Shown: positions 28,497 to 63,749 of the stretch, piece after piece
How the letters are laid out: every line of letters begins with the position of its first letter
How positions within the stretch are numbered: position 1 is the first letter of the stretch
Program-made: the position numbers and the translations under genes
The notes under the pieces: generated by a model
Told to the model about the DNA's origin: nothing
Databases searched by the model: none
The model's input: only the letters and a program-made list of their open reading frames with translations
From: Thermodesulfobacteriota bacterium
Lineage (GTDB): Bacteria > Desulfobacterota > Desulfarculia > JACQYL01
Assembly (NCBI GenBank): GCA_963675595.2
Contig: CAXXLZ010000001.1
Span: 1,376,001 to 1,440,000, forward strand
Direction of reading: 5' to 3'
Length of the DNA: 64,000 nucleotides

Positions 28497-28512
28497 CCGA
28501 AAACTATTTATA
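28497..28512 (+). promoter_or_regulatory. Archaeal-type BRE-TATA motif
   Basis: CCGAAAACTATTTATA; ATG 24 nt after TTTATA, no SD; identical 16-mer at 45506-45521 (minus). Confidence 0.65.
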
Positions 28513-28535
28513 CCCGCGCTTCCCGATCATCCAAT

Positions 28536-29708
28536 ATGGCCGGCGGCGCATTCGATGAAGTCTGGGAACTCCTTTCAGTATTCGATATCCCGTACATCTA
28601 TGACCGCTACGCTGTGGGAGTCGATTTCGTCCTCGCTTTTCTCTTCTTCCTGGGAGTCAGCCAGGTCACTCTCGGCAAGCGTTTCACAGGCAAAGGCGGG
28701 AGCCTTCTCACTGTCGCTGTATCGCTTCTCTTGTCTGTAGGATTATCTGTCGCTGAATCACGGCTCAGGTTCAGCCTCGCTTCCTTCGGCCCGATCGCAA
28801 TCTTCTTCCTTCTTTTCATCGTTGGCTTAGTGCTGTATCAACTCGCCCGGCACCTGGGATTCCATGCATCGACTGCTTTGTCCCTCGTGTTCGTTATGAC
28901 CTATTTCTCGATCCAGGCAGTGTCGCCGTCCATCATGGACTTCGTTCACCAAAGAGCGCCCTGGCTCAGGACCACGCTGTTCTGTGTCTTCGTGTTCGCT
29001 GCTGGAAAGCTCCTCTATTCGATCTTTCATACGATCTTTTCGAAAAGCTCAATCACGTCCCTCGCATCCAAGATTGAAGCAAACCCTGAATTCACCCGAC
29101 AGATTGAGCGGGATGTCGAATTCGAGGAACATGAGAACAAATCCTCGAAGAAACAGGAAAAACTCTCCAAGAAAAGCCGGGGAGATTCGGAAGATATTCT
29201 CCAACGCATAGTATCGGTCCTCAGGATTCTTGAAACAGAAGGAGTAACGCCTTTCGCGGGAAAGAAGATCGCGGACAAATTGGTCTCCATCGCGGATTCA
29301 GAACACCAAATCGAAAAGCGAATGAAACAGCTCGAGTCCGCCAACGCCGATCTCAAGCGAGTCGATGCCGACCATCTCACCCAACTCAGAGACCGGATGA
29401 GCAGAGCCCAGGGCAAGGAAAAGGAAAGGCTTCAAAGGGAAATCGAACTGGAGAGCGAAAAACTCCGACTTCACCAAGCGGTCGAAACCCTCGGCCAACG
29501 GATTGACGCTTTGATGGAGGAGTTCAAGGCCTCTCTCCGATCAGCAGCCGAACTTATCGCGCGGTCAGCCTATCCTCTGGATGCCCGGCCATACTTGCAG
29601 CGGGCAATCCAGATCGATGAGGAGGTTCGGCGGGAGCTTGACGTGATTCAAGATTTTGAGGATAAGATAGGCAAATTCGCGCGCGAGGCGAAGAAAAGCG
29701 CCAAGTAA
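28536..29708 (+). CDS. Membrane protein: about 5 N-terminal TM helices plus long charged coiled coil
   Basis: Hydrophobic first ~165 aa, then E/K/R-rich helical region. Confidence 0.8.
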   Translation: MAGGAFDEVWELLSVFDIPYIYDRYAVGVDFVLAFLFFLGVSQVTLGKRFTGKGGSLLTVAVSLLLSVGLSVAESRLRFSLASFGPIAIFFLLFIVGLVLYQLARHLGFHASTALSLVFVMTYFSIQAVSPSIMDFVHQRAPWLRTTLFCVFVFAAGKLLYSIFHTIFSKSSITSLASKIEANPEFTRQIERDVEFEEHENKSSKKQEKLSKKSRGDSEDILQRIVSVLRILETEGVTPFAGKKIADKLVSIADSEHQIEKRMKQLESANADLKRVDADHLTQLRDRMSRAQGKEKERLQREIELESEKLRLHQAVETLGQRIDALMEEFKASLRSAAELIARSAYPLDARPYLQRAIQIDEEVRRELDVIQDFEDKIGKFAREAKKSAK

Positions 29709-30516
29709 GGGATGATTTGACCTTTAGGCAATCAGGATATCGAAAGGCATTCAACGTGTTCTTAAGCCATCATTGGAAGCATATACCCATGAATAGACGG
29801 GATGTGTCTCTTTCGTGTTCAACCTAACCAATCTAAGCAAAATCATGCAAAAGAGTCATTTGCCTTCAAACTGCACCGTGTTAAAATAATTTTCCGATTC
29901 AAGTATTCTCATGCCTTAGCCTTCGTTATCCCGAAAACCGTGCGATTCCGTGGAAATCGTGCTCATGAAGGTAGATTCTCAGCCAAATCGGATACAAGAA
30001 ATAGGCTTCTCGACGAGAGCGGATTTGCGATTGGTCCCGAATTTTAGGAAGGCAAAAGACTTTACATTTCAAGGCGGCTTGAGATCGTTGTCTCGGCACC
30101 CATTTGTCGACGAGAAACAACAGATCTGAGCATTTTGTCTTGGGAGAAGAAGATGCAGTACGGTCTGCAATGGTGACGAATAGCAGACTATTTTGCTCGA
30201 TTATAGGCAAGGCCGCCGATCGATGGCGCGCTTTCTGTGCAATATCGGGCCCTCCCCGCCCCTCGTAATTACCACATTTCCCGTGAAATAAATCTGTTCT
30301 TGAATCTGGCCCGCAAGCTGTACATAATTTGCAGTGCAGAGATTTTTACGACTGCCACACCTGATGAGCTCAAATGTAACATTCCTGAAAATGTCGAGAT
30401 CAAATCGCTTTAGGGCAAGAGGGAAAAAGCCTAACTCGGGAAGATTCCGTTTCATAGTGTCCGCATTGCGCACCGAATGGGTTAATTCCAACTTTGACCA
30501 TTAAGGGAGAAGGATA

Positions 30517-31980
30517 TTGACAACATCCATGACAAAAATTGCGGGAAACAAAGGCTCCGGCCCCCCTGGAATCGTCAAAATCCCGGCCGGCATCCGGGGA
30601 CTGGATGAGGTCCTCAACGGGGGTGTTCCCAAAGGCGCAACGACGCTTCTCAGTGGCGGGCCGGGAACGGGCAAAACCATGTTAGGGCTTGAATTCCTTG
30701 TCCGGGGGGCTATGGCCGGGCATCCCGGAATCCTGTTGACCTTCGAGGAAACTGAGCTTGCTTTGAAAAACTATGCCGCCGGGTTTGGGTGGGATCTCGC
30801 CGAATTCGAATCCAAAGGGTTTCTGTCCATTGTATCGGCCCGCATCCAACCGGACGCCGTGCTTTCCGGCAATTTCGACCTGCGCGGCGTCATCGGTATC
30901 CTGCGGCAAAAGGCCGATTCCATAAAGGCCGAACGGGTGGTTGTCGATGCCCCGGACGTGTTCCTTCGCCTTCTGGGTGACATCTCCAAAGAGCGGGCAG
31001 AATTGCACCTCCTGCACGAATGGCTGCGGGAGGCAGGGATGACGGCCCTGATGACGGTCAAAAGCCGAACGGACCAAGCCTCGTCCTCGCAATACGATTT
31101 CCTCGATTACATGGCCGATTGCGTGATTCACTTGGACCAGCGGGTTTTGGAACAGGTCACCACACGACGTCTGAGGGTGACCAAGTACCGCGGCTCCGCG
31201 TACGGTCGGAATGAGTATCCGTTCGGCATCACGGACAAAGGAATCTGGATCATTCCCGTAACCCAGGCCAGCCTGAGGCACGCCGGCCTCGGCGAATGCC
31301 TCTCCAGCGGCGTGGATCAACTGGACCACCTTCTGGGCGGAGGTTACCGGCGAAACTCCTGCACTCTGCTGACGGGAAATTCCGGTACCGGCAAGACCAC
31401 CTTTGCCTGCGCGTTCGCCCTTTCCATGGTTTCTTTGGACGAACGCATCCTCTACCTGGACTTCGAGGAAAGCTGGGATGCTCTGGTCTCCTGCATGCTG
31501 AGTCCCGGCCTCGACCTGCAACCGGCCAGGGATTCCGGCAAACTGAAGTTCCTTTCCAACATGCCCGAATCCCAGGGTATCGAGGAACACCTGATCCAGG
31601 CATTCCGCGCCATCGAAGCGTTTGAACCGCATCATCTGATCATCGACGCCATTTCCGCCTGCCGCCGCATGGGTTCAGACCACGCGGCCTTCGACTACCT
31701 CCTGCGCATCATTGATTATTGCAAGCAACGCGGCATCACCACGCTGCTCACCAACCTGATTTCAGCCATGGACCCGAGCCGTGAAATTACGGGCATCGAC
31801 CTCTCCTCGGTCATCGATACGGTCATCCTTTTGCGAAATATGGAAAAACAGGGCCGCTTCGTGCGGGACCTGGGAGTTCTCAAATCACGGGGCCGCAGCC
31901 ATTCGAGCCGTATTCACGAATTCAGAATCACGAACAACGGCATCGAGATCGGCGGAAATGAGGGGGACCATGTCGAATAA
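30517..31980 (+). CDS. kaiC: KaiC-family double-domain ATPase
   Basis: GGPGTGKT/TFEE and GNSGTGKT/DFEE; KYRGS and KSRG.SH; LSSVIDTVILL at the phosphosite position. Confidence 0.9.
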   Translation: MTTSMTKIAGNKGSGPPGIVKIPAGIRGLDEVLNGGVPKGATTLLSGGPGTGKTMLGLEFLVRGAMAGHPGILLTFEETELALKNYAAGFGWDLAEFESKGFLSIVSARIQPDAVLSGNFDLRGVIGILRQKADSIKAERVVVDAPDVFLRLLGDISKERAELHLLHEWLREAGMTALMTVKSRTDQASSSQYDFLDYMADCVIHLDQRVLEQVTTRRLRVTKYRGSAYGRNEYPFGITDKGIWIIPVTQASLRHAGLGECLSSGVDQLDHLLGGGYRRNSCTLLTGNSGTGKTTFACAFALSMVSLDERILYLDFEESWDALVSCMLSPGLDLQPARDSGKLKFLSNMPESQGIEEHLIQAFRAIEAFEPHHLIIDAISACRRMGSDHAAFDYLLRIIDYCKQRGITTLLTNLISAMDPSREITGIDLSSVIDTVILLRNMEKQGRFVRDLGVLKSRGRSHSSRIHEFRITNNGIEIGGNEGDHVE

Positions 31981-32281
31981 AACTCCGACCCGAACCTCCG
32001 CGGTCATCCGCTGTGTGGCCCGCCTTTTTGTCTGCGGCGATGCCCTCTACTCGCGGAGGGCCAGAGAAAACCTCCAGCGGCTGGGGGAGACGCTTCATCA
32101 CGTTGAATTCGAGGTGGAGGTCATCGATGTTAACGAGACCCCCCAGCTGGCCCTGGACCAGGGGATTTTCGTCAATCCCGCCCTTCAGGTGCTCGAACCT
32201 GCGCCGGGAACGCTGATTTACGGAGACTTGAGCGATTTTCAGGCATTGGCCGCTATATTCCCGAAAGGTGATGACCAATGA
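31970..32281 (+). CDS. kaiB: KaiB-family protein
   Basis: RLFVCGD..SRRARENL..EVIDVNETPQLA..I.V.PAL..P..IYGDLSD; overlaps kaiC stop, SD GAGGGGG. Confidence 0.85.
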   Translation: MSNKTPTRTSAVIRCVARLFVCGDALYSRRARENLQRLGETLHHVEFEVEVIDVNETPQLALDQGIFVNPALQVLEPAPGTLIYGDLSDFQALAAIFPKGDDQ

Positions 32282-35200
32282 GCGCCTCGAAATCACCGCC
32301 TTACGATGAGTTGAAGCGGCGCATGGAGGCTGCGGAATCGGCGCTGAAGGCCATCCGGGAGGGCCGCGTGGACACCATTTTGGGCGAACGCGAGACCCTG
32401 GTGGTTCGCCTGGCCGAAGCTGAGGCCAGGGAAGCGCATCTGAAGCAGGTGCTATTGGCCATCCGTAACGTCAACCAACTCATCGTGGCAGAGGACGACC
32501 CGCAGCGCCTGATCGAGCAGGCTTGTGTGAATCTGACGGAAACAATGGGGTATCACAACGCCTGGATCGCCCTGCTGGGCGGCAAAGCGGGTCTGGGGCT
32601 GGGGCTGGGGACGGAAGGGCCGGTGGCGACTGCAGCGGCTGCTGGGTTCGACGTTGGGTTCGAGACCCTGCGCGAGCGCCTCGAGCGCGGGGAATTCCCG
32701 GAATGCATGAAGCGTGCAATGGAAAACGAGGACACGCTTGTGAAGGACGATCCCATGGTGGATTGTCCCGACTGCCCCCTGCACGCCCAATACGGCGGCC
32801 GCGCCGGTTTGGTCCGCCGCCTGGACGCGGGCGGCGTGACCTACGGCATCCTGACGGCCTCCGTTCCCGCCGCCTACGCCCGAAACGCCGAAGAACAGGA
32901 ACTCTTCAACGAAGTGGCCGGCGATCTGGCCTTTGCCCTCTACAAGATCGCAGCGGCGCGAAAATTGGAGGAAAACCGCCAACATCTTTCTTTCGTCATC
33001 GAAGGGTCGGGCGTGGGAACCTGGGAATGGAACGTCCGGACCAATGAAACCCTCTTCAACGAGCAATGGGCGACCATGCTCGGATACACCATCGAGGAAC
33101 TGACGCCTTACGACTACGGGACCTGGGAACGCCTGGTCCACCCGGAAGACCTCGAGCGGGCGCGCCAAGCTCTGGCGGATTGCGTTGAGGGCAGGACGAC
33201 CGACTACAACTGCGAATTCCGCATGAAGCACAAGGACGGCCGTTGGGTCTGGATTCTCGACCGAGGGCGCATCATGACCCGCGACGATGCGGGCAAGGCG
33301 CTATCCATGTTCGGCACGCATACCGACATCACTGATCTCAAACAGACTGAAGAGGCGCTCAAACGACAGCACACCATGCTGGCCCGGACGGAGGCTATAG
33401 CTCATGTGGGCAGCTGGGAGTGGGATATCGCCGAGGACCGTGTGCGTTGGTCAGATGAGCTGTTCCGGATATTCGGACGCAACCCCGACACTGAGGCCCC
33501 GTCATTCGCCCAACATTTGGAAATCTATTTGCCAGAGGATATGGAGCGCCTAAAGGAGGCGGTTGAACACTGCGTATCCCAGGGGACGTCCTATGAACTA
33601 GAGCTCAGGGCCATTCGATCCGACGGTGAAATCCGGCACTGCTTCGCGAGGGGGCAGGCGGAAACCGATGAGACCGGCCGGGTCGTCAGACTCGCAGGCT
33701 CCTTGCAGGACCTCACGGAACAAAAAAAACAGCACGAACGTATTTCCCTACTCGTCCGCATGCTCGACGAGGCCCCCGCTTCGATCACGATTCACGACGT
33801 CGAGGGGGGCTTTCTTTACGCCAACCGTGAGACTTTTTCGCTCCATGGGTACGATGAAGACGAATTCATGTCCATCAACCTTCATGAGCTGGACGTTCCC
33901 GAGAGCGAGGCTCTGCTGGAAGAACGCTTCCGGCTGATTTTCGAAAAAGGAGAGGCGTCTTTCGAGGTTAATCATTATCGCAAGGACGGGACCGCATTTC
34001 CACTTCAGGTACTTGCAAAGCAGGTTCAATGGGAGGACCGCCCAGCGGTGTTGAGCATCGCCACCGACATTTCAGATCGCAAGCGCATGGAGAGGCGGCA
34101 TCAGGTTCTGGCCGACATCATCAAACGCAGCCGGGACTTCATTGGTGTTGCCGACTTTCGTAAGGAGGCGTTTTTCGTGAATCCCGCCGGCCGGGAAATG
34201 GTCGGGCTCGACGGGGACGAAGAAGTCGCCGGAACAAAGATCGAGGATTATTTTCTCAAGGAGGATATCGCTTTCGTCAATAATGTCATTATCCCAACCG
34301 TGGTGCAGGAGGGGCGATGGGCGGGCGAGTTCCGGTTCCGTCATTTCAAAACCGGAAAATCGGTTCCGGTTCTTTACGATCTCTTTCGCTCTGAGGACCC
34401 TTCAACCGGAGAAATGATCAATTACGCCACTGTTACGCGCGACATCACCGAACGCAAGCGGACCGAAGACGCCCTGAAGTTCGCCAACACGAAACTCTCC
34501 ATTGCCATGCAGGCCGCAGGACAGGGTCTTTGGGAGTGGAGTCTCAGCACGGATACCGTCCATTTTGATGATGCGGCCCTGGAAATGCTAGGCTATCGGC
34601 GTGAGGATATCCAGGGGCCTATGGAAACCGGTAAATGGTGGATCAGCCAAGCACATCCCGATGACAAAGCATACATGGAGGAACGGTTCGACCGTTATCT
34701 TTCGGGCAAGGAAAAGGAATACCATGTCGAATTCCGCCTCAAAGACAAGGACGGCGGCTACCTATGGGTGGAATCGTCAGCAAGAGTGATTTCGAAGGAC
34801 CCTGCCGGGAACCCCGAGGTTGTGGTGGGTATCCACCAGGATATATCCAAAAGGAAAAGGATCGAGCAGAATCTGATCCAATCGGAAAAGAATTACCGGG
34901 ATATTTTTGACAACAGCAGCGACTGCATCTTCATCCATGACGCCACCACCGGCGCCATCGTGGATGTCAACCGAACCACATGCGAGACCTTTGGTTATTC
35001 GGTCGAGGAAATAAAGCACCTCGAGGTGGGAGACTTCAGCCTGAACCGGCCGCCTTACACCAGCGCCGAGGCAGTGGAGTGGATCAAAAAGGCCCACAAG
35101 GAAGGCCCGCAGCGCTTTGAATGGCTTGCCAAAGACCGTATGGGACGGCTGATCTGGTTCGAAAACAACCTTCTGAACGCCCAAATCGGTGGAAAAGACA

Positions 35201-37980: not shown

Positions 37981-38081
37981 GCTGAGTCGGAAGTTATTGG
38001 ATATCAGGCTCAAGCTCAAATATCCGGATCACTTTGCACAACAAGATACACCCGCATTTTCCGGAATTCATGGTGATCGAT

Positions 38082-42338: not shown

Positions 42339-42355
42339 GAACGCAATCTTAACCG

Positions 42356-42775
42356 TCAGAAGAAACCAAACAACCCCCGGTCCTTCTTCTCCTGCATCAC
42401 GCCTTTACGCTCTCTGGCCGACGCCGCAATGCCGGCGAGCTTCTCCAATGACTTCGCGAACCTGCTCGAAAAGACCCAGCCTTCCCGATAACCGTGCCGC
42501 TTATTGAAGCGAGAGACGTGGTCAATCAGCCCCATACGCCGCATCTTACTTCGGACGGTTTCGAGGATTCTCGATGAAAAACTGTATTTATTGCATAACG
42601 GCTGAAGGGTGCTCAAGAATTCATGCTTAGCATACTTGAGTTCGATGAAGATTGCGAGAAAAACTCGCTGATGGTTCTTGTTGGCTGGGAATAGGATAGC
42701 CGCGAGTTCATCCAGGTCCCGAGTCCTCGCGATCTTGTTATGGCTGAGTTCGATTTTGGTGCTGACGGTTGCCAT
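42356..42775 (-). CDS. Hypothetical protein, probable winged-helix
   Basis: LETVRSKMRRMGLIDH..GWVFS wHTH-like pattern; coupled to upstream stop, GAGGTG SD. Confidence 0.65.
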   Translation of the reverse strand: MATVSTKIELSHNKIARTRDLDELAAILFPANKNHQRVFLAIFIELKYAKHEFLSTLQPLCNKYSFSSRILETVRSKMRRMGLIDHVSRFNKRHGYREGWVFSSRFAKSLEKLAGIAASARERKGVMQEKKDRGLFGFF

Positions 42776-43143
42776 CACCTCGTATGCCGGCACCGGCCGA
42801 TGGCCGGCTTACCGTAACCATTCTCTTTCAGGGCTTCCTTCCGCAGTTCGACTCGTTGTTTCGCGATTTCGAGAGCCATGCCCCTAAGCTCAGTGCCAAA
42901 GGTATTTTCAACCCAATAAATCGCCTCATAGGCCGAGACGTACTTGTCACCAAAGAGCCTTTGAAACCGCCACCTGATTCCCTGGCGGGTGAGCCCAAAG
43001 GTATTCTCGATCTTGTCGCCGTAATTTCTGCGCAATACGAACCGCTTCAGGCCGTCCTCCTTCAGTTCAATCTTGAGGTCTCTATCGTCGATCAACATCT
43101 TGAGCTTTTCAATGAACTCCTTGTCCTTTTCAGTCAATTTCAT
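42775..43143 (-). CDS. Hypothetical protein, possible HTH
   Basis: FGLTRQGIRWRFQRL HTH-like; overlaps both neighbours. Confidence 0.65.
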   Translation of the reverse strand: MKLTEKDKEFIEKLKMLIDDRDLKIELKEDGLKRFVLRRNYGDKIENTFGLTRQGIRWRFQRLFGDKYVSAYEAIYWVENTFGTELRGMALEIAKQRVELRKEALKENGYGKPAIGRCRHTR

Positions 43144-43945
43144 TATAGGGCGGCTCGATTTCGATATCCGAGCCGTATTGTGTGACCCGCACTTCCCCAT
43201 CCTGAAGCAGGAAAATCAGAGCCATAAATCGCATCGCCCGATCTCTCCGGGCATTATCGATCAGGAGATCAATCCTGGAAAACAGGATTTGTTGACACCT
43301 GTGAACCGAATCCAGGATATGGCGTCTGTACCGGGACAGCCCAGGAAGATTCCCAGTCAGGGAGAACTCCTCGCCCCAAACTCCCGCGTCAAAACCCATG
43401 AAACCCGACAATGCTTCAGTAAACCCAGGCAAACGATCAAGCCGTGGTTCCTCCAGTAACGCCAACCCGCCCGACCGCTCTTCTCGACGGGCGAGCCTCA
43501 TCATCTCTCTTCGCCTTCTTGCCTTGGCTCTCGATTCAGCCATCCGTTGCCGGAAATAGGCTCGGTCGAAGACCCGTTCATCGAACAAGAACCGGGACGG
43601 CACGGTCTTCCCACAGGAAGCGCACGCATAATGAAGACTCCGCCTGACCAGCTTTGCTCCGCAGCAGCCGCTCCTTTGAAACACCACTGTGGGGTCGAGT
43701 TCATGGCCGCTCGGACAAACGGCCAGACCTGCCTCCAGCATCCGAAGTTTTTCACCGCATAGAGGACACAAATGATTCGCCAGCATAACGTCGTAGTAGT
43801 AGTCTCGGGCCGCAGCCTTGTATTGAGCAACGCCGAAAACAAACTCCCCGATAATCCGGCCGACGGCCGCCTCCGGCTCTTCCAAGTCAGAGACCATCGC
43901 TGAGTGTTCGCCAGACTGAGCCGGTTCCGGTGTTCCGCATTCCAT
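43130..43945 (-). CDS. Zn-ribbon protein with ScpA/kleisin-like C-terminal winged helix
   Basis: CPLCG, CPSGH, CCG, CASCG; C-term FMALIFLLQDGEVRVTQYGSDIEI resembles the ScpA C-terminal motif F.ALL.L...G.V...Q....DI.I. Confidence 0.6.
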   Translation of the reverse strand: MECGTPEPAQSGEHSAMVSDLEEPEAAVGRIIGEFVFGVAQYKAAARDYYYDVMLANHLCPLCGEKLRMLEAGLAVCPSGHELDPTVVFQRSGCCGAKLVRRSLHYACASCGKTVPSRFLFDERVFDRAYFRQRMAESRAKARRRREMMRLARREERSGGLALLEEPRLDRLPGFTEALSGFMGFDAGVWGEEFSLTGNLPGLSRYRRHILDSVHRCQQILFSRIDLLIDNARRDRAMRFMALIFLLQDGEVRVTQYGSDIEIEPPYNEID

Positions 43946-43968
43946 ATTTATTGGGAAGCAGAGCTTTC

Positions 43969-43983
43969 TTATAAACATTTCTC
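43969..43983 (-). promoter_or_regulatory. Archaeal-type BRE-TATA motif
   Basis: Minus GAGAAATGTTTATAA; ATG (43945) 25 nt after TTTATA, no SD. Confidence 0.55.
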
Positions 43984-44000
43984 TCCCACGCCGCAGAATT

Positions 44001-44016
44001 CGGAAAAGTTTATATA
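44001..44016 (+). promoter_or_regulatory. Archaeal-type BRE-TATA motif (divergent from previous)
   Basis: CGGAAAAGTTTATATA, then GAGGTGA SD (44039-44045) and ATG 44051. Confidence 0.65.
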
Positions 44017-44050
44017 CACCAGGGCCTTACCAAGTCCCGAGGTGATACCG

Positions 44051-44194
44051 ATGCCAAGACCCTATAAGTGCCCATATTGCGGCGCAACCCAAAGCCACTG
44101 GAAAGGATACAGGCCCCTTGTCCAGGGAAAAGTCCGGCTCCGGATGTGCACCAAGTGCCACCGGAAGTTCACGACTCGAGTTAAGATCGAATAA
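44051..44194 (+). CDS. Small zinc-ribbon protein (47 aa)
   Basis: MPRPYKCPYCG..CTKCHRKFTT; strong SD. Confidence 0.7.
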   Translation: MPRPYKCPYCGATQSHWKGYRPLVQGKVRLRMCTKCHRKFTTRVKIE

Positions 44195-44209
44195 CCACCG
44201 GACGGACCG

Positions 44210-45484
44210 TCAATGAAAACCGCCGAACGGCCCGGCACCAAATCCTTCTCTCGATAAGAACCGGTTGAGGGTTTCCTTGGGGAGCGACCTCGATATTTCT
44301 CTTGTCTGGCCGTACCTGCCGCGTGATATCAGCCGAGCGTTGATCAGCCCATAAAGGTCAAGGGAACCAATGATGTCCGAGAACCTCCGTTGCGTGAGCG
44401 GCCTGACCCGTTCCAACTCGCAGAAATTAGCGTATCGATCATAGGCTTCGCCCGTAGTGACCCGTTTCGAAGTCTTGGCCAGAAGATCGTAGCAGGAAAG
44501 AAGCGCAAGTTTTTGCTGAGGAGCGAGCGCCCGAACCATCTCTTCGGTCTTGTCCATCTCCAATCTGTGCTCAGCCATATCCACGATTTCTTCGGACAGC
44601 CTGCCGCCGGTTTCCTGCGCCACCTTGGCCGACTTTGATAGAAGCTCCACCGCCTTTCTCGCATCACCGGTGTCCCGCGACGCCAATGCCGCGATCTTTC
44701 GAACAGCAGCCACGTCCACCTTTGACTTGTCCAATGCCTTTTCCACTCGAAGATTCAGAATTTCTATCAAATCCAAGGCGTTATAGGGTTCAAAGAGCAT
44801 GTCCGTCTTCTTGAGAACACTCAGAATCCGCGGGTCCAGCATCTTGTCCCAGTTCAGTTTGTTCGTGACCATGATAAGAACCAACCGGCAGGGAATCTTT
44901 CTCGGAAGGGTCTTTCCGAGGAAGGTAATAAACTCGTCCGCATTGGGCTTGATGTTATCCGCCTCATCAATCAGGAGGCACAAGAAACCCTGGAACCGGT
45001 TCAGCTCTTCGATGATTCGTTCCTGCATCTGATCAATGGGAATGCCTTTCCTGTAGGTGCGAATCGAGTCATTGAGTGCTCTTGCAAGTTCATTCAACGC
45101 TCCGAAAGAGGACCTGGGCGAGGTCAAGTCCACGTATCTGTACTGAAACCCGATCGACTGAGTCCGGCAATATTCCTGGAAAGTTGAAAGCACGTGAATG
45201 AGGGAAACCGTTTTCCCTGAACCCGTAGGCCCGAAGACCAGCAAAGAACTCGGATGATCGCCGTCCAGGATGGGAGTCAGATGACAGACGATGCGTTTCA
45301 GCTGCTCTTCCCGGATATTCCGATCAAAAATCTCCTTCAGAACCGAAGTCCGCTCTTCTTCAGGCAACTTCTCGTCGTCCAGATAGTTGGGGTTCAAAAT
45401 AAGGCGATGATTCTTCTGTGAGTCATGCAATGTGCGGATGAATTGCAAGGAAGCTTCGGAATGATCTCCACCGGACATTTTCAA
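44210..45484 (-). CDS. cdc6: Orc1/Cdc6-family replication initiator (archaeal type)
   Basis: L.P.Y..REEQ; GPTGSGKT; LIDEAD; LDPRILS; FEPYNA.DL.EIL..R; TGDARKAVELL; wHTH TTGEAY..Y..PLTQRRFSDIIGSLDLYGLI..SRGRYGQTREI. Confidence 0.9.
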   Translation of the reverse strand: MKMSGGDHSEASLQFIRTLHDSQKNHRLILNPNYLDDEKLPEEERTSVLKEIFDRNIREEQLKRIVCHLTPILDGDHPSSLLVFGPTGSGKTVSLIHVLSTFQEYCRTQSIGFQYRYVDLTSPRSSFGALNELARALNDSIRTYRKGIPIDQMQERIIEELNRFQGFLCLLIDEADNIKPNADEFITFLGKTLPRKIPCRLVLIMVTNKLNWDKMLDPRILSVLKKTDMLFEPYNALDLIEILNLRVEKALDKSKVDVAAVRKIAALASRDTGDARKAVELLSKSAKVAQETGGRLSEEIVDMAEHRLEMDKTEEMVRALAPQQKLALLSCYDLLAKTSKRVTTGEAYDRYANFCELERVRPLTQRRFSDIIGSLDLYGLINARLISRGRYGQTREISRSLPKETLNRFLSREGFGAGPFGGFH

Positions 45485-45505
45485 GCGATTCTTCTACAGG
45501 ACATC

Positions 45506-45521
45506 TATAAATAGTTTTCGG
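45506..45521 (-). promoter_or_regulatory. Archaeal-type BRE-TATA motif upstream of cdc6
   Basis: Minus CCGAAAACTATTTATA, 22 nt before TTG 45484 and 28 nt before ATG 45478. Confidence 0.65.
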
Positions 45522-45568
45522 TAATAAGCCCTGTCGTTACTTGAAAGCGAACCGGATTTTAAGTGTGG

Positions 45569-45949
45569 GAAAGTTTCCGGTGGAACTTTCAGTTTCAGTT
45601 TTTAGTGATGTTTTCTTTTCCTTATTATTATTTATTTCTATATAGAAACTATATAATATAATATAATATAATATAATATAAAAGCCGCCAAAATATAGAA
45701 ACATTTTTAAAATAGATCACTTCAAAGTGGCAACAAAGAAACAAACATAACACACCCAACAAAACGGTTTCAAGTTTTCCACGCGACATTTACACACACT
45801 CTAAAAGCTGATTTTGGATCACTATTGAGTGACAACGTGGAGGCCATGACGTCCCTAAAAGACCTCGATCAACGACGGTATTTCAAGAAAACCCGAAACA
45901 ATCGGCCATTCGACAGTACAAGAGTAACGTTTCCACCGGAAGTTTACTC
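45569..45949. other. Putative replication origin: AT-rich DUE between inverted ORB-like boxes
   Basis: TTCCGGTGGAA (45575-45585) and its exact reverse complement TTCCACCGGAA (45931-45941) flank an AT-rich tract, adjacent to cdc6. Confidence 0.65.
45651..45680 (+). repeat. (ATATA)6 tandem repeat
   Basis: Read directly. Confidence 0.95.
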
Positions 45950-46011
45950 GGGTTCCCGAAGCCGGTTGACGTCAATCCATCCATTCCTCCGAGAAAATTC
46001 CCGAAACCAAC

Positions 46012-46542: not shown

Positions 46543-46557
46543 CAAAAAACTTATAAA
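46543..46557 (+). promoter_or_regulatory. Archaeal-type BRE-TATA-like motif
   Basis: CAAAAAACTTATAAA, then GGAGGTG SD and ATG 46616. Confidence 0.45.
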
Positions 46558-46615: not shown

Positions 46616-47059
46616 ATGGCAATGGAAACAAATTCGGCCACATCCGGCACACCATCAAGCGGCTGTCCCACTTGGGACGGAATGGGCATATCCGGCGATC
46701 TGCCGCCCTTTTTCAAGCCCACCGAAGACATGAAACGAAACGGCTTCGAAGTGATCTTTCTGTCCGACGGTCCCAGGAGAGAGACCGAGAACAACTTCGA
46801 CAAGAACTCGAAAGACCTCTGGTTCGATATCTCCTACCAGGACAAGGAAATGACCTGGACCATCAGCCAGATCAGCCTGCTTTCCGAACTGAAGAAGCAT
46901 TCACCGCTGAAGGAGAAGATCCTCAGGATACGCCTTGTTCCGGTGACCGAAGAATTCAGGAAAAAGCGGCCGAAGTACAGAGGCAGTGAGCGATACCAGG
47001 TTGAAGAAATCCGAGAAAACCGATTCGACAAGATCGACGTGGAAGAACTGACGGTATAG
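46616..47059 (+). CDS. Hypothetical protein, possibly ssDNA-binding (beta-rich, acidic tail)
   Basis: Strong SD; aromatic beta-strand pattern, C-term DKIDVEELTV; function is inference only. Confidence 0.6.
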   Translation: MAMETNSATSGTPSSGCPTWDGMGISGDLPPFFKPTEDMKRNGFEVIFLSDGPRRETENNFDKNSKDLWFDISYQDKEMTWTISQISLLSELKKHSPLKEKILRIRLVPVTEEFRKKRPKYRGSERYQVEEIRENRFDKIDVEELTV

Positions 47060-52630: not shown

Positions 52631-53002
52631 CTACATCCGGACGTGGAGCCGGATTGCATTTTCGGTTTTCTTTTCGATCACCGTGTAGCCTTTACGCCGA
52701 GCTTCGGTCCGGGTCTTCTCCACCGCATAGGCCTGCTTCAAGAGTCCTCCGTTTACGCCGATGGCTCTTTCCACGTTGGGGTCGTAGAAGTCGCACTGAA
52801 GCTGGTACCTGCCGTGCATCCTCTGAACGCCGATTTCATAATCCGCGCCGGGCAATCGAATGGCATGCTCGCACGCTGCATTGTTTCCGTACCACCGGAA
52901 CTCTTTCCTGCCTTCGAGAAACACCAGGCCCAGCCGATTACACGCAGACTTCAGGACAGCGAGGTCCTTTACTTCGAGTTCGATTTTGACGATATGACTC
53001 AT
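52631..53002 (-). CDS. DUF1257 (Ycf35)-like protein
   Basis: MSH...I..EV.DL..L..AC..LG..YEIG..Y.L..D..L.Q.YA..A...GY. Confidence 0.8.
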   Translation of the reverse strand: MSHIVKIELEVKDLAVLKSACNRLGLVFLEGRKEFRWYGNNAACEHAIRLPGADYEIGVQRMHGRYQLQCDFYDPNVERAIGVNGGLLKQAYAVEKTRTEARRKGYTVIEKKTENAIRLHVRM

Positions 53003-53481
53003 CGTATCCTCCGAATCGTTCTGACGGGTTCTTCGTCGCTTCTGCTCGCTCTCTTCGCCCGAGTCTCAGCCCAATCCCGGAGCGCTGAGAGCTGCTCCTT
53101 CATGGTTTTCGAAAGCGGAACAATGGCTTCACGAGCGTTTCCTAGGCCATCGAACAGCGAATCCTTGGCCAGCTGCTCGATCTCAGCGCCTGTCCATTCA
53201 GTGAGTTCAGCAGCATACTCGGAGGGTATTTCCGAACCGTATCGTTGATTCATGATCTCGATAATGGCTTCGCGCTCGTTTTTGTTCGGGATATCCACGA
53301 AAAAAAGGGCATCAAACCTCCCCGATCGCAGAAACTCAGGCGGAAGCCCCGAGATATCGTTGGCGGTTGCCATGACCAGAATCGGACTGGTAGTCTCTTG
53401 GAGCCAGAGGAGCAGATGCCCGAACATGGACGAGGTGGTACCGCCGTCCGTCATCCCCGAACTTTTCACCCCGGACAGCAC
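52999..53481 (-). CDS. Ycf46-like AAA+ ATPase, 3' exon
   Basis: DGGTT..FGHLLLWLQE..ATANDISGLPPEFLRSGRFDALFFVDIP..WTGAEIEQ; in frame with the 5' exon after intron removal. Confidence 0.9.
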   Translation of the reverse strand: MLSGVKSSGMTDGGTTSSMFGHLLLWLQETTSPILVMATANDISGLPPEFLRSGRFDALFFVDIPNKNEREAIIEIMNQRYGSEIPSEYAAELTEWTGAEIEQLAKDSLFDGLGNAREAIVPLSKTMKEQLSALRDWAETRAKRASRSDEEPVRTIRRIR

Positions 53482-56042: not shown

Positions 56043-56966
56043 CTTTTCCGTCTCATCGATCCATATGACCGCTTTTCCGAAAGCATCAATCGTTGCAGTA
56101 GCTTGCCTCATTTTTCGTTCGCTCTCTCCGACGAGAGAACCTTTCAAAGCGGACAAATCCAACCGGATGAGCGGCCATCCGAGGATCGAGGCCGCTGCCT
56201 TGCAGGAGAGCGATTTCCCGCAGCCCGGCACCCCGACCAAAAGCAAGGCTTTAGGTCTTGGCAGATGCTCATTGCCGGGCTCGAAGGCTTTCTTTCGGTT
56301 ATTGATGTACTCCTTCAGGAGATCGAGGCCTCCGACTTCTTCGATGGGCACCGGCGGCCAGAACTCCATCAGTCCCGTGCGTTTGATCATCTGCTTTTTC
56401 TGCTCGGTAACGATCTCCCTGCAGAACCGTTTTCGTTCCACCAAGGACCGGGCAAACGCGGTCTCAGCCTCGAACTCGGTAAGTCCCAGGGCAGATTCGA
56501 CAGCCTCCGCATCGGCTTCGATCCCGACGCTCTCCCCAAGCTCTTCCTGAATCCGTCGAAGTTCCTCAAGCCCCGGAAGTTCAAAGTCCAGCATGGTGAA
56601 GTACTTTTCCAATTCCGCCGGCAGGCTCACCTGAGGCCCCACCAAGACCAGACAACACCCTTGGCCTTTCCAGGAGGGCAGGCTGTTCTGGATTTCCTGG
56701 ATGATTTCCACGGAACCCAGGAAGTGATGAAAATTGTGCACGAAGAGCACGGTGTCCTCTTTTCCCGAGAGCCATTTGAGACTGCTCAAAGGATCGGTGG
56801 AATCGTCGTTTCGCATGCCGGACTGCAAATCCACGATGCCGCGTTGACAGTCCCAGGAAAATGTCCTCCATCCTTCGGGTCGAATGGAGCCGACCGCTCG
56901 ATCCGGTTCGAGGGTGATGATGTAAAGCGCCGGATACCCGGCTTTGAGATAACTCGAAATGTCCAT
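56043..56966 (-). CDS. Ycf46-like AAA+ ATPase, 5' exon
   Basis: EVGGLDLLK, GVPGCGKSL Walker A, VGESE, IWIDE Walker B; AAGGAG SD at ATG 56966. Confidence 0.9.
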
Positions 56967-57086
56967 ATCGTTCTCCTTCCGTTCGGAAACAGAAAAGGCC
57001 GCTTCCAGCTCACGGCCGGAAACAGCCCACAAAAAAAGCGGCCGAAGCCGCCGCCATCCATGCTCTTTGATTCTTTTCTTCTTTGT

Positions 57087-57380
57087 TTAGTAGAGATACT
57101 CCTCAACGAGTTTGTAGGGAAATTGCTCCACTTCCGCTTCTTCGTTGAACTGCTCGAGCCTGTCTCTGCCGGCCACCGGCTCCTCCACCGGAACAGCCCT
57201 GCAAAGGATCAAATGCCCGCCGAATCTTTGTCGCAAGACCCCGAGTTCCGAAACCGCCTCGACCGGGTCTCGGAATCCAACCGGGTCATCCTGACCCACC
57301 ACCATGGGCCCCAGCGGATGCCGTGGGTTGATGATGATGTAGACCGGAGCCTCGTTCTCGTTGATCCCGACTGACCGCAC
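57087..57380 (-). CDS. Hypothetical protein
   Basis: AAGGAG SD, GTG start, in operon. Confidence 0.6.
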   Translation of the reverse strand: MRSVGINENEAPVYIIINPRHPLGPMVVGQDDPVGFRDPVEAVSELGVLRQRFGGHLILCRAVPVEEPVAGRDRLEQFNEEAEVEQFPYKLVEEYLY

Positions 57381-60285: not shown

Positions 60286-62262
60286 TTAACGTTCCGCTTT
60301 TTCGGTGAGTAGGATGGGAATGATCTTTTCGATAAAATCTTTGGCGAGGTAGGCTTGAACGCCTTGAATGGTGAGGAGTGATTGGATTTTGGTGAGGGCT
60401 TCGGGGTTTGTCGCGATCATGAACTTCTGAATGGAGGCGTGGTTCGAGAGGGTCTCGACGTTCTTCCTGATGTCCGATTTTCCGGTCTCGACCTGAACCG
60501 CCAAACCACCGTTCCAGTCCGCCACGAGATCGAGATTGTCTTTTTCCAGGAACACTCGGCAGTGCCCGGCAAGCGCCAGTCGGATTCTTTCGACCCAGTA
60601 GTTGTGCTCTACTCCGCCCCGAACTCGAGAATTCTCGAGTTTCAGGCCTTCTCGGTGGAGCTGCTCTCCGGCCTGCGGCGTCAATTCAAAGAGCCGGTTT
60701 CGATCCACAAGAACTTCCTTGAGCAGGCCTTTCTCCATGAGACCGTCCAGGCAGAGGGTTCCCTCCCGCGGGTTCATTCCGAGCTTCTTGTAACGTTTTT
60801 GAACTCCGTCGAAAGGATGACGCGCGATGTCATCCAGCAGAATCCGCTCCATGGGGGAGAGTGTTTCCGGATTTGAAATCTCATGAAAGGAGTTTATTTC
60901 CGGCTTTAGAGCTTGGTTTGGATATTCATTTCCTGAAGAAGAGTTTATTCTAGTTTGTATGACTTTATCCCGGATCATTCCCTTCTCGATTTTGAATTCC
61001 GGCACCGTTATCAGGAACGGAAACGGGACCCTTCCGGTCTTCACAATGGCCTCTCCCACCTTGAGCATGCCGTAGTAAGTCTCATTCCCAATGGGAATGA
61101 GCTGGGAACGGCTCAAACTCGAGAAATCTTGAGACAGAGAGGTTTGAAAGCCGATCCGGGTGTAGACATTCCCAAGAGCTGAGACTGAGACTTTGTGGGG
61201 ATGCTGATCGAGAATCACGATGCCTTCCCCGAGTTCCCTGATCTCCCTCATCATGACGTCCGTGATATCCTCTTCCTTGCTCGTTCGAAGGAGCAGGTGA
61301 TGGGCTTCCTCAATGACGATCATGTGCTTTAGAATCTCTCTTTCCGGTTCCTGCATCCGGTAGAAATAGATCCAAAGAAGCAGGCTTCCGATGATGAAAG
61401 TCTTGTCCGAATCCGAAAGTCCGTCCAGTTCCAGGATCACGTTTTTCCAGAGCAGTTCCGGGATTGAAATGGGACTGAGACTGGGACTGGGACTGACGCT
61501 GGGAGATTGAAAATTCACAACCTCGTTCAGGCCCGGGAAGGTGAGGCTGTTCAGGGTTCGCTTGGCGGAACTCAGCCAAAGCATTTCTCTGCCTCGGCGG
61601 TTTTGCTTGTCGATATAGCGCTTCATTTCCGCGAAGTCGGGCAGGCTCATGGCGTCCATCAAAACGTCCGACGCACCGGGCCCTAACAGATAAGCCTTCT
61701 CGATGATCTCCATCAGCTTCTTCGACCAGATGTGAGACTCCACTCCGGGCGGAGGAATCTTTGGATTGAAACGGAAAGGGCTGACCTCCCTTCCCACGGT
61801 ATAGATCAGGATGTCCTCGTTCCGGAAATCCGGATGTGTCAAAAGGTCCCGGTAGTTTCGTTTCCAGTCGAAGATCAGAAACGGAATCTTCGCCTTGACG
61901 AACTCTCCCAGAAGATTCATGCAAGCGGTAGTTTTTCCGGAACCGGTCTGCCCGAAAAGTCCCACATGGCGAATCAACTCGTCCTTTCTGAGACCGAAAG
62001 GATAGAGCTTCTTGCCGCAATAGGAGACGTGTCCGAGCTGCAATTGCCCGGCCGCTTCATCTTTCCCAGGCGGCGGCAGCATAACGGCGTTCTCGAACGC
62101 CACTCCCGTATGCTGCAGGAGCATGGAATCGACCATGGATTCGATCTCGCGCTTGGCTCTCGGATTCTCCTCTATCTGATAAAGCGACCACAGAGCCCGA
62201 AGTTCTCCTGAAGAGACGAAGGGCTCGAGCCGTCTCAGTTTTTCGGCAACAGTTACGATCAT
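60286..62262 (-). CDS. HerA/FtsK-superfamily (DUF87/VirB4-like) ATPase with C-terminal wHTH and nuclease-like domain
   Basis: RHVGLFGQTGSGKT, IFDWK..Y, FNP, IVIEEAH, REIRELG..ILDQHP; C-term GGVEH..DLV..AVQVETG. Confidence 0.85.
   Translation of the reverse strand: MIVTVAEKLRRLEPFVSSGELRALWSLYQIEENPRAKREIESMVDSMLLQHTGVAFENAVMLPPPGKDEAAGQLQLGHVSYCGKKLYPFGLRKDELIRHVGLFGQTGSGKTTACMNLLGEFVKAKIPFLIFDWKRNYRDLLTHPDFRNEDILIYTVGREVSPFRFNPKIPPPGVESHIWSKKLMEIIEKAYLLGPGASDVLMDAMSLPDFAEMKRYIDKQNRRGREMLWLSSAKRTLNSLTFPGLNEVVNFQSPSVSPSPSLSPISIPELLWKNVILELDGLSDSDKTFIIGSLLLWIYFYRMQEPEREILKHMIVIEEAHHLLLRTSKEEDITDVMMREIRELGEGIVILDQHPHKVSVSALGNVYTRIGFQTSLSQDFSSLSRSQLIPIGNETYYGMLKVGEAIVKTGRVPFPFLITVPEFKIEKGMIRDKVIQTRINSSSGNEYPNQALKPEINSFHEISNPETLSPMERILLDDIARHPFDGVQKRYKKLGMNPREGTLCLDGLMEKGLLKEVLVDRNRLFELTPQAGEQLHREGLKLENSRVRGGVEHNYWVERIRLALAGHCRVFLEKDNLDLVADWNGGLAVQVETGKSDIRKNVETLSNHASIQKFMIATNPEALTKIQSLLTIQGVQAYLAKDFIEKIIPILLTEKAER
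61471..61506 (-). repeat. Degenerate 6-bp tandem repeat encoding a Ser-Pro linker
   Basis: GGGACT GAGACT GGGACT GGGACT GACGCT GGGAGA = SPSVSPSPSLSP. Confidence 0.7.
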
Positions 62263-63029
62263 TGAAATTCCCTCTCACACCATCCACCGCATAGACAGGG
62301 GTAGTCCTCTTCACGCTCCGACTCGGTCAGCTCGTGCATTCGGCGGATTTCTTCCGCAGCCCAATCCACGAGTTCTTGGGTAGGCTTGAAAACCTTGGGA
62401 TTGTCTTTGGAGGATGGGAATTTCAGGAAATGGACTGAGACTCGATCGGGAAGTTTTCCGTGCACTTCCTGCTCGAGGAGGGCGTAGATCGCAAGCTGGA
62501 GTTTGATGCCGGGGGTAATGTCCTGGTATTTCGAAGTCTTATAATCCCTGATCTCGATGAATTCTCGAGAATAGCGGGCATCCACGATACCTTGGGCACC
62601 ATGAAGTTGACTCAATAGCCGTTTTTCCGGCTCAGGCGGGCTTCTTCCTCTGCTTACTTCTCGGATAAACTGGTGAAGCCAGTTCAAAGCCATCTTCCTG
62701 GCCTCGACGAGTTGCCCTTCGGCCTCGTCCCGACCGCCGGAGAGCTTCCGAATCTCGAGAATTCTCGAGTTCCACAGGAAATCCACCCTGTCCAGTATTC
62801 GACTTCGCGCATCTGCGTAGGGCGCGTCGAGAAACTCGGGAGTATATGCCCGAACAAAGGCTTCCGCAGCCTGGTGAACCACCTGCCCCACGATGAAGCA
62901 CATCTTGGGTTTGGTCTTCAGTTTCCTGACGTATCTAAGATAGAACTTTCTCGGGCATCCCCATCGGAACTGCGCATCCTTCTTATAGGAAAGAATCGCC
63001 GACGGGCTCAGGATTCGCTTGAAGGTCAT
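62259..63029 (-). CDS. PD-(D/E)XK RecB/Cas4-like nuclease
   Basis: LSPS.I..CPRKFY..G..VH..E..GIVD..DYKTS..QLAIY..C-terminal Cys cluster. Confidence 0.88.
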   Translation of the reverse strand: MTFKRILSPSAILSYKKDAQFRWGCPRKFYLRYVRKLKTKPKMCFIVGQVVHQAAEAFVRAYTPEFLDAPYADARSRILDRVDFLWNSRILEIRKLSGGRDEAEGQLVEARKMALNWLHQFIREVSRGRSPPEPEKRLLSQLHGAQGIVDARYSREFIEIRDYKTSKYQDITPGIKLQLAIYALLEQEVHGKLPDRVSVHFLKFPSSKDNPKVFKPTQELVDWAAEEIRRMHELTESEREEDYPCLCGGWCEREFQ

Positions 63030-63187
63030 TTTGATCGGTCGTAACGGCTCCGCACCTGCATTTCCCTCACAAAGTACACGATCACTTTTTCCAGTTGATG
63101 TTTTTCCATGGCGAGCGCGAAGGCTCCAGGCACTTCATAGAGCTTCTCCACGTCCGTCATGGTGACGTCCTTATATTGGTATTTCAT
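63026..63187 (-). CDS. Small hypothetical protein (53 aa, not in ORF track)
   Basis: MKYQYKDVTMTDVEKLY..YDRSK*; GGAGG SD; stop overlaps nuclease ATG (ATGA). Confidence 0.55.
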   Translation of the reverse strand: MKYQYKDVTMTDVEKLYEVPGAFALAMEKHQLEKVIVYFVREMQVRSRYDRSK

Positions 63188-63189
63188 TC

Positions 63190-63711
63190 TCAGGTTTTTC
63201 CTCCCAGCAGCTTGGCCTTCTCCTCTATCGACCTCCGGTACTCCACGGTATCCCTGAGTTCCTTGCCCAAAAACAGAATGTCCCTGAAATAGGCGGCAAG
63301 TTCCATTCTCCGGTCCCGCTCGAGATCGATCTTCCGCGTCTCCAATCCGATCCAGTCCCGGTCCCTTCGATAGACCTTGTAGCCCATCTCGAAAATAAGA
63401 TTCTGGCAGGCGCAGAGATCCCGCTCGATGCCGTATAGGTTCTCCTCCTTGATCAGCCTCCGCTTATCGATGGCTTCGATCACGGCTTCGATCCGATCTT
63501 CCCTCCTTTGAATCTTCGCTCCCAACATCCCTTCCAGGCTCAGAAACCCCACACTTTTTTCCGAGGGCACACCTTCGTAAACAGAGGGGGACGCCAAGTA
63601 GGACGCTCCGCTTCCGTAAGGGGAGACCAAGTAAGATGCTCCGCTTCCGTAATCAGGCGTGGGTCGTATAGGAGAGTACGAATCAAGCCGCGAAAAATAA
63701 TCATCACTCAT
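63190..63711 (-). CDS. Coiled-coil hypothetical protein with YGSGASYLxSP repeat
   Basis: 33-bp tandem duplication 63587-63652; charged helical C-terminal half. Confidence 0.65.
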   Translation of the reverse strand: MSDDYFSRLDSYSPIRPTPDYGSGASYLVSPYGSGASYLASPSVYEGVPSEKSVGFLSLEGMLGAKIQRREDRIEAVIEAIDKRRLIKEENLYGIERDLCACQNLIFEMGYKVYRRDRDWIGLETRKIDLERDRRMELAAYFRDILFLGKELRDTVEYRRSIEEKAKLLGGKT

Positions 63712-63732
63712 AAGTAGTTGAAATGAGATTCT

Positions 63733-63749
63733 TATATAAAAAGCTTTCC
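63733..63749 (-). promoter_or_regulatory. Archaeal-type BRE-TATA motif
   Basis: Minus GGAAAGCTTTTTATATA; ATG 63711 is 24 nt after TTTATA, no SD. Confidence 0.6.

Follow-up and report, generated by a model that had tools for sequence, protein, structure and literature searches.

The window analyzed here (64,000 nucleotides (nt), positions 1,376,001–1,440,000 of contig CAXXLZ010000001.1, from a Thermodesulfobacteriota bacterium) holds most of the backbone of a mobile element that sits beside a tRNA gene and carries an Orc1/Cdc6 initiator next to an origin recognition box (ORB)-like origin, and whose backbone genes are preceded by short motifs of archaeal appearance. On balance, we consider it somewhat probable that these motifs are working core promoters, with the layout of archaeal TATA-binding protein (TBP)/transcription factor B (TFB) promoters, of bacterial elements that integrate at tRNA genes and bear an Orc1/Cdc6–ORB module. 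The layout comprises a B recognition element (BRE)-like cGAAAA at −38 to −33 and an 8-bp T/A box at −31 to −24, with T at −11 and a pyrimidine as the last base ahead of the start; transcription is predicted to begin either at the A of the ATG, giving a leaderless mRNA, or at the first base of a GAGGTGA Shine–Dalgarno (SD) sequence. The same backbone is present four times in the genome (copies E1 to E4, 90–96% nucleotide identity). Working promoters of archaeal design are the simplest account because boxes and spacing are fixed, the spacers between them drift, the motifs are restricted to the islands, and the genes behind them are under purifying selection.

The original prediction, made for this window, had placed six BRE/TATA motifs before backbone genes, and all six were found at their positions, the observation holding beyond the window as well. 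Spacing was re-measured by counting from the end of TTTATA to the A of the ATG, and the three genes said to start 24, 25 and 24 nt after the box with no SD gave the same values: the ATG of p390 (28536) lies 24 nt behind CCGAAAACTATTTATA (28497..28512, + strand), that of the p271 operon (43945) 25 nt behind GAGAAATGTTTATAA (43969..43983, −), and that of the p173 operon (63711) 24 nt behind GGAAAGCTTTTTATATA (63733..63749, −). The motif before cdc6 (45506..45521, −) is again exactly CCGAAAACTATTTATA, as had been claimed (0 matches expected in 100 shuffles), and it is followed by the two candidate starts foreseen, a TTG at 22 nt and an ATG at 28 nt. The remaining two genes do possess the SDs ascribed to them: CGGAAAAGTTTATATA (44001..44016, +) is followed after 22 nt by GAGGTGA (44039–44045) and the ATG (44051) of a Zn-ribbon gene, and CAAAAAACTTATAAA (46543..46557, +; site 5) has a GGAGGTG SD 45 nt downstream and then the ATG (46616) of a gene of 147 amino acids (aa). 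Directly before that GGAGGTG lies a perfect 7-bp hairpin (GAATCGG, 6 nt, CCGATTC; 46580–46610). An additional GAAACATTTTTAAAAT site at ~45698(+), in the origin-like region, is kept in E1, E2 and E4, and a TTTAAA box before p143 (46471, −) was dropped as a candidate, being not conserved in E2.

Evolutionarily, the four copies show a synonymous divergence (dS) of 0.1–0.3. The ratio of nonsynonymous to synonymous divergence (dN/dS) between copies was 0.01–0.04 for cdc6 and 0.05–0.40 for p390 (0.11–0.40), p271, the Zn-ribbon gene (Znr), p141, p147, p173, HerA, the nuclease, DUF3150 and RadC, with pairs involving p145 of E2 and E3 and RadC of E4 (broken frame in the extracted sequence) and p271 of E2 (blastn match <90% coverage) left out; these values point to strong purifying selection on the backbone genes. 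Before p390 and before cdc6, every copy carries an identical motif with a differing spacer, and the p271 promoter has four mutually unalignable spacers in the four copies with the ATG always at distance 25. The p173 promoter of E3 reads CCGAAAGCTTTAAATA, with a different BRE-like stretch and box (CCGAAAGC, TTTAAATA), an unrelated spacer and a distance of 25. An ATG 24–25 nt after TTTATA, behind a spacer with no SD, is thus found for three genes, in 4, 4 and 4 copies. Boxes and spacing have been kept while spacers drifted in front of genes under purifying selection, and therefore the design appears to be in use.

Beyond this genome, related loci (L002 to L044) keep the gene order cdc6, Znr, p271, p141, p145, and the spacing is conserved in these homologues, with some 22–23 nt from box to ATG or SD retained while the spacers diverge. 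The Znr promoter consists of CGAAA (GGAAA in L032), 2–3 nt, a T/A 8-mer, 20–23 nt, (G/C)AGGTGA and the ATG, a layout present in L003, L012, L013, L020, L032, L033 and L036 with unrelated 20–23-nt spacers; L042 has the layout without CGAAA, and in L043 an ATG stands where the other loci have the SD. For p271, two loci (L003, L020) show CCGAAnn, the box, ~22–23 nt and an ATG, and four (L012, L013, L032, L036) have a degenerate box (TTATTATG type) and then a longer leader, with a clear SD and a GTG start in L012 and L036. All genes with leaderless geometry start with ATG, and the p271 homologue of L012, with leader and SD, uses GTG. Upstream of cdc6, inspection by eye of 25 non-identical relatives revealed an A-rich stretch and a T/A box in 24 of them (TTTATATA, TTTAAATA, TTAAATA, TTTATAAA and similar, two with one C; L033 is weak). 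In six of these relatives (L002, L018, L020, L021, L042, L044) an ATG follows the 8-mer at 22–24 nt, and four others (L012, L013, L032, L036) have an extra in-frame ATG 24–25 nt after the box. Across 149 kb of the relatives' loci a strict composite motif occurred nine times, five of them with an ATG or SD at 22–26 nt; five of the eight other distance bins were empty, and the remainder held five hits at 37–41 nt (four being the same sites) and one at 27–31 nt (L036), mostly an ATG behind an SD. Between Znr and p271, L003 and L007 carry an inserted lipoprotein-like gene (signal …LLLAACGH) preceded by ACCGAAAAG, CATATAAA, 22 nt and an ATG; this gene has acquired the CCGAAAAG, CATATAAA, 22-nt, ATG design. 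A further motif, CCAGGTCTCT, recurs 3–25 nt 3′ of the T/A box in both of the divergent promoters, before Znr (L013, L042, L043) and p271 (L012, L013, L032, L036), and may be the operator of an element regulator.

Motifs of this kind might conceivably serve something other than transcription, as sites for a partition, silencing or replication protein or as inherited sequence with no present function; they do stand beside the origin region of Orc1/Cdc6-type proteins, and their promoter activity is read from sequence. We give this explanation hardly any credence, since the motifs head five or more distinct transcription units, as much as 35 kb from one another, stay at a constant distance from start codon or SD across lineages with unalignable spacers, are distinct from the ORB-like boxes, and accompany even the gene newly inserted in L003/L007.

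Genome-wide counts, which the original prediction had proposed as a comparison of island with core DNA, bore out the island specificity of the motif. AAA-N1-3-TTTATA occurs 55 times in the genome, and those occurrences with a long, suitably spaced open reading frame (ORF) behind them are concentrated in the four copies. TTTAWA boxes with an ATG at 22–26 nt that opens an ORF of 60 aa or more number 52, of which 18 fall in the four copies of the element (3.7% of the genome in this count); five other distance bins gave 2–6 in the elements, and the same genome-wide distance test with TATAAT and TTGACA showed no comparable enrichment in the elements. The composite GAAA-N2-4-TTTAWA is found at 64 sites, 24 inside the elements and 40 outside, and an ATG or SD at 22–26 nt follows 16 of the 24 inside versus none of the 40 outside (by the attachment-site (att) borders, two of these 40 fall in the distal cargo of island E2, neither with the geometry). 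Because the four copies are paralogues, these counts reflect about 4–5 independent promoters, each represented up to four times.

Archaeal TATA boxes are centered at −26/−27. We aligned 27 distinct promoters, hand-curated by coordinates, on the ATG or the first SD base, and obtained a profile whose sharpness is overstated, because the promoters were partly picked by motif within a spacing window and are mutually related. The profile has cGAAAA at −38 to −33 (A at −35 in 24 of 27, at −34 in 25, at −33 in 20) and a box at −31 to −24 reading t, T, T, T, W, W, A, W, with T at −30 to −28 in 19–23 of the 27, only A/T at −27 and −25, and A/T in 26 of 27 at −26. A purine-rich BRE-like stretch thus stands directly 5′ of an 8-bp T/A box of the TTTAWATA type. 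The other informative positions are T at −11 (21/27), A at −7 (17/27) and C at −1 (16/27); C stands at −13 in 17 of 27, and −32 shows no preference for C (A 8, C 7, G 8, T 4). The claimed match to archaeal BRE/TATA design holds: cGAAAA and the T/A box of the profile agree with a haloarchaeal study, where the elements are given as BRE 'CGAAA', TATA box 'TTWT' and −10 element 'WW' (PMC4983044); a methanogen study places BRE/TATA ~19–22 nt from the start (PMC5378194).

Could bacterial promoters look like this? If the motifs were ordinary sigma-70 promoters, the T/A box would be the −10 element, transcription would start about 7 nt further on to give 15–17-nt leaders, and cGAAAA would be the operator of an element-encoded regulator. 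The boxes do partly resemble TATAAT (some variants, TATATT and TATTAT, at five of six positions), the host has nine sigma-70-family genes, and the elements encode several winged-helix and Zn-ribbon proteins. A sigma-70 consensus scan of 43800–46700, however, made five calls, all in the AT-rich origin tract and none at the motifs, and no −35 element is seen by eye 17 bp 5′ of the motif at 44001(+). The conserved TTT before WWAW and the missing final T misfit TATAAT, and a start 7 nt after the box leaves the 22–23-nt spacing to ATG or SD, with its diverged spacers, unexplained. Nor does a sigma-70 −10 fit with the start at the anchor, where A at −11 occurs in 1 of 27 promoters and T at −7 in 4 of 27. 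We thus regard plain sigma-70 promoters as unlikely, in agreement with the original prediction that the motifs are not of this type.

An alternative sigma factor of the same family, similar to the extracytoplasmic function (ECF) type, would take cGAAAA as its −35, the C/T-T at −13 to −11 as its −10, and the T-rich box as an extended −35 or spacer. The −35 motifs of ECF factors resemble GAAC and precede runs of T, cGAAAA would lie near the usual −35 if transcription began at the ATG, and both T at −11 and C at −13 (21 and 17 of the 27 promoters) are frequent. This reading is nonetheless very doubtful: the 'AAC' core is missing, as −32 has no preference for C, the −10 region holds little information, no sigma gene lies in any island, and the absence of the motif from core DNA makes a host sigma regulon improbable.

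Beyond the overstated sharpness of the profile, several points weigh against working promoters of archaeal design. The transcription start, some 22–23 nt after the box, is itself a prediction from geometry. Six sequencing runs in two studies contain the locus, none of them listed as RNA, and what matched 25001–45000 was short metagenome contigs that neither span the tRNA junction nor reveal starts. Site 5 is the weakest of the six motifs and does not fit that geometry, having no GAAA, a TTATAAA box and an SD 45 nt away, and conservation is uninformative there because the region is 97% identical between copies. In cdc6 relatives other than the six named above, the conserved ATG lies 31–60 nt from the box, so not every promoter is leaderless. 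The expected readers were not found in the host. Profiles for TBP, the TFIIB cyclin domain and the TFB Zn-ribbon (PF00352, PF00382, PF08271) gave no match in the 98%-complete genome, the TBP and TFIIB profiles having responded in the four archaea used as controls; the single gene with an Rpb1 domain is the bacterial beta′ (1368 aa), and an archaeal-type polymerase was not found; and none of the nine sigma-70 (region-2) genes lies in any island. A search for a T7-type polymerase found no match in the genome, with a silent control. Of the TBP, TFB, RNA polymerase or sigma-like genes that the original prediction had suggested looking for in the rest of the island, no TBP, TFB or second RNA polymerase gene was found in genome or islands, and no sigma gene in any island.

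Structure models of the backbone proteins supply leads to a different kind of reader. The p271 model (predicted confidence, pLDDT, 80) combines Zn-ribbon strands with a long helix and ends in a winged helix; its best fold matches are the C-terminal winged helices of kleisins (E 0.01), and it is not TFB- or sigma-like. The p145 model (pLDDT 69) appears to be a winged helix for which archaeal AbfR2 (E 1.4e-3) and TFE-alpha (E 5.2e-3) rank first, at TM scores of 0.45–0.52; the matches, ranging from E 1.4e-3 to 7e-3, are to archaeal regulators and TFE-alpha and serve as a lead. A kinship of p145 with archaeal AF_0843 (Atlas score 0.92) was not confirmed by Pfam. The winged-helix matches of p271 and p145 are weak (none at E ≤0.001), and nothing in these proteins resembles TBP, TFB or sigma, a further count against the archaeal-design reading.

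As no TBP, TFB, second polymerase, island-borne sigma or T7-type gene was found, an element-encoded reader stands as a hypothesis. Because every host found is bacterial and has no TBP and TFB, we infer that the promoters would be read in the bacterium, by the host RNA polymerase together with an element-encoded DNA-binding factor that escapes recognition, the candidates being those core proteins that carry winged helices or Zn-ribbons (p145, p141, p271 and Znr). An ancient, plasmid-like ancestor from archaea probably passed on the design along with the replicon. A bolder version, possible though on the unlikely side, is that an element factor places the bacterial polymerase ~23 nt after a TATA box with no −10, in a sigma-independent or sigma-replacing manner, or that the elements are true inter-domain shuttles with universal signals (leaderless AUG, GAGGTGA).

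The distribution of the family bears on the second of these options, and on the alternative that only archaeal TBP, TFB and RNA polymerase read the promoters, with the elements shuttling and selection acting in archaea. Cdc6 homologues at 60–69% identity are numerous, and those with names belong to Thermodesulfobacteriota and strain NaphS2. In a sample of 401 genomes of the phylum, four had a match: this genome (four copies), two others with four and two copies, and one weak case. A scan of named genomes with the Cdc6 alignment as query returned at least 10 confirmed relatives, all bacterial among the matches listed: a Desulfatiglandales chromosome, NaphS2, Desulfopila, a Thermodesulfobacteriota metagenome-assembled genome (two contigs), Desulfosarcina variabilis str. 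Montpellier, a Desulfarculaceae chromosome, two Hydrogenedentota and one unclassified bacterium; a metagenome scan added at least 13 more family loci.

In favor of an archaeal phase, initiator (Orc1/Cdc6), ORB-like origin and promoter design are each of an archaeal kind, the large Atlas clusters that lie nearest to Cdc6 by features are archaeal (a lead), and archaea and bacteria alike can translate from leaderless AUGs and from a GAGGTGA SD. Yet neither collection scan, named genomes or metagenomes, has an archaeal member among the matches listed; the named metagenome proteins are from Thermodesulfobacteriota, the carriers in the phylum sample hold 2–4 copies each, archaeal plasmid Orc1 proteins are only 26–31% identical, and the elements combine tRNA-linked integrases in bacterial chromosomes with bacterial-type accessory genes and a group II intron. 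An exclusively archaeal reading is thus quite unlikely, and the cycling through archaea that the original prediction allowed for left no sign among the relatives listed. As hosts are bacterial and the backbone mixes archaeal-type with bacterial mobile-element genes, we think that reading in the bacterium by an element factor is more likely than an archaeal phase.

The same comparisons bear on the age of the archaeal contribution. Identity of Cdc6 is 54–69% within the clade (54–64% for the distant relatives used in the promoter comparison) and 26–31% to archaeal plasmid Orc1/Cdc6 proteins; because the clade is this deep (54–69% within, ~30% to archaea), its archaeal heritage is, to judge from sequence, old and not recent. 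A recent archaeal origin of the backbone is unsupported, given the 26–31% identity of Orc1 and the bacterial mobile-element genes. The original interpretation is partly supported: an archaeal BRE/TATA design that is island-specific and resident in a bacterial host is borne out, and recent archaeal origin and archaeal cycling are not.

The cdc6 gene (44210..45484, −; conserved start ATG 45478, in-frame TTG 45484) encodes a full-length Orc1/Cdc6 with an AAA+ module, lid and C-terminal winged helix (Pfam Cdc6_C 1.6e-24, Cdc6_lid, AAA_22), and residues 58–416 match Sulfolobus Orc1-1 (PDB 2qby_A, 2.8e-51) and Aeropyrum ORC1 (2v1u_A, 5.3e-51). Upstream lies an origin-like region (45560..45950) with boxes (TCCAnnGGAAA) that we take to be ORB-like and an AT-rich (TATATTA)n tract; such boxes, GTTCCAnnGGAAA, occur 5′ of cdc6 in all relatives read (window 45560–45950; loci L002–L044). 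An inverted ORB-like box overlaps the conserved cdc6 start, ATGTCC(G/T)(G/A)TGGA, even when out of frame (L003/L007), and this inverted copy over the start therefore suggests that cdc6 is autoregulated by its own product. A search of the genome for MCM returned only weak AAA+ matches, and as the control responded in all 14 genomes it did not discriminate.

The other backbone genes include p390 (28536..29708, +; 390 aa, family unassigned, predicted leaderless), the operon p271, p141, p145 (42356..43945, −), syntenic with cdc6 in relatives, the 47-aa Zn-ribbon protein Znr (44051..44194, +), weakly NrdR/Lar-like, and an operon of p173, a small ORF, a PD-(D/E)XK nuclease and a HerA/DUF87 ATPase (60286..63711, −). 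No Pfam, NCBIfam or PHROGs match was obtained for p390, p271, p141, p145, p147 or p173. A pRiA4b-ORF3-like protein, DUF3150, DUF2958, DUF1257 and RadC also belong to the backbone, and of these RadC, DUF3150, DUF2958 and the pRiA4b-ORF3-like protein are typical of bacterial mobile elements. An AAA ATPase gene is split by a group II intron (53478–56042; reverse transcriptase/maturase 53571–55433) into exons at 56019–57032(−), covering AAA profile positions 1–69, and 52999–53481(−), covering 77–130. Each of the four copies has the intron at this site, and in E4 a tandem duplicate is suggested by the blastn pattern; a 458-aa plus-strand ORF (55998–57374) opposite exon 1 is probably spurious. Within the element, an FkbM-type methyltransferase gene (49751–50638) has a GC content of 0.36 and a third-position GC content (GC3) of 0.28, and would be a recent foreign insertion, since both values are far below those of host and backbone.

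The host genome comprises 6.79 Mb in 3 contigs (98% complete), and the left flank of the window consists of bacterial genes (glyQS, flagellin, SMC, FtsY, AlaRS, RecA). The island is integrated at a tRNA-Arg(TCG) gene (26412..26488, +), whose 3′ 48 nt, from 26442, form attL and are repeated as attR ~91.7 kb downstream, beyond the window; a tyrosine integrase gene (26502..27614, −; Phage_integrase 1.2e-25) adjoins the tRNA gene. An integrase beside a tRNA gene and a repeat at the far border mark this as a tRNA-integrated genomic island, and the four islands, at tRNA-Arg (91.7 kb), tRNA-Val (130.3 kb), tRNA-Arg (93.4 kb) and tRNA-Phe (75.6 kb), each lie between the tRNA gene on one side and, on the other, a direct repeat of its 3′ end that is 45 nt or longer. 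Because four copies are bounded in this way, a chimeric assembly, the concern raised about contiguity, is very unlikely. The host is bacterial and the integration is real. The shared backbone spans 27570–31364 and 42348 to ~68500 in window coordinates, separated by variable cargo (a KaiC and PAS-kinase block), and the islands' cargo comprises PAS kinases, IS elements and a group II intron. The backbone is near the host in composition, as had been stated, if somewhat lower in GC3 (0.63 vs 0.69 in flanking host genes).

Three further observations concern the surroundings. A 6.3-kb metagenome contig matches 26442–27746 with 56 differences and has unrelated sequence directly before 26442, the boundary of the att core; it may stem from a relative at another integration site or from a circular form. 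Two insertion sequence (IS)-like repeats, of ~1.39 kb (>10 near-identical copies) and ~1.88 kb (>20 near-identical copies), are spread genome-wide over contigs C1 and C2 (for example at window coordinates 82005–83392 and 91164–93053, beyond the window), some copies lying in distal island cargo. The flagellin at 3417–6278 is unusually long (953 aa), with canonical N- and C-terminal helical domains.

The known systems closest to these elements are of four kinds. With archaeal TBP/TFB leaderless promoters (haloarchaea, class II methanogens) they share a CGAAA BRE directly 5′ of a T/A box near −27, a T/A position near −11, a pyrimidine–purine start and an ATG at the predicted start with no SD, but they sit in bacterial chromosomes, in a genome with no TBP/TFB and only a bacterial RNA polymerase, and their start is predicted. 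With archaeal Orc1/Cdc6–ORB replicons (plasmids, viruses, chromosomes) they share a full-length Orc1/Cdc6 and ORB-like inverted boxes with an AT-rich tract beside the gene, one box overlapping the cdc6 start, whereas their clade is bacterial among the matches listed and 26–31% identical to archaeal plasmid initiators. T4 late promoters, TATAAATA, to which the phage proteins gp55/gp33 redirect the bacterial RNA polymerase, have boxes at −10 and need no upstream element; they resemble the motifs in that a mobile element uses a T/A-rich 8-mer poorly read by host sigma-70, and in that the reader would be element-encoded and unrecognizable by sequence, but here the box lies near −27 with an obligatory cGAAAA and a fixed 22–23 nt to ATG or SD. 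Finally, a tyrosine integrase by a tRNA gene, repeats of at least 45 nt, sizes of 76–130 kb and variable cargo (PAS kinases, IS elements, group II intron), along with RadC and DUF3150, are those of bacterial tRNA-integrating islands and integrative and conjugative elements, unlike which these elements have a replication module and promoter design archaeal in kind.

Our literature search found no description of Orc1/Cdc6 elements in bacteria that have promoters of archaeal type. Incompatible promoters are considered one of the chief obstacles to gene exchange between the two domains, and here an element family resident in bacteria keeps an archaeal promoter design, Orc1/Cdc6 initiator and origin in hosts with no known readers. 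Possibly an undescribed factor makes bacteria read such promoters; alternatively, the elements may move between domains. A direct test is feasible, as the carriers include at least two named strains (Desulfosarcina variabilis str. Montpellier and NaphS2), and, if the finding is true, either answer would change views of inter-domain transfer and of the evolution of transcription initiation.

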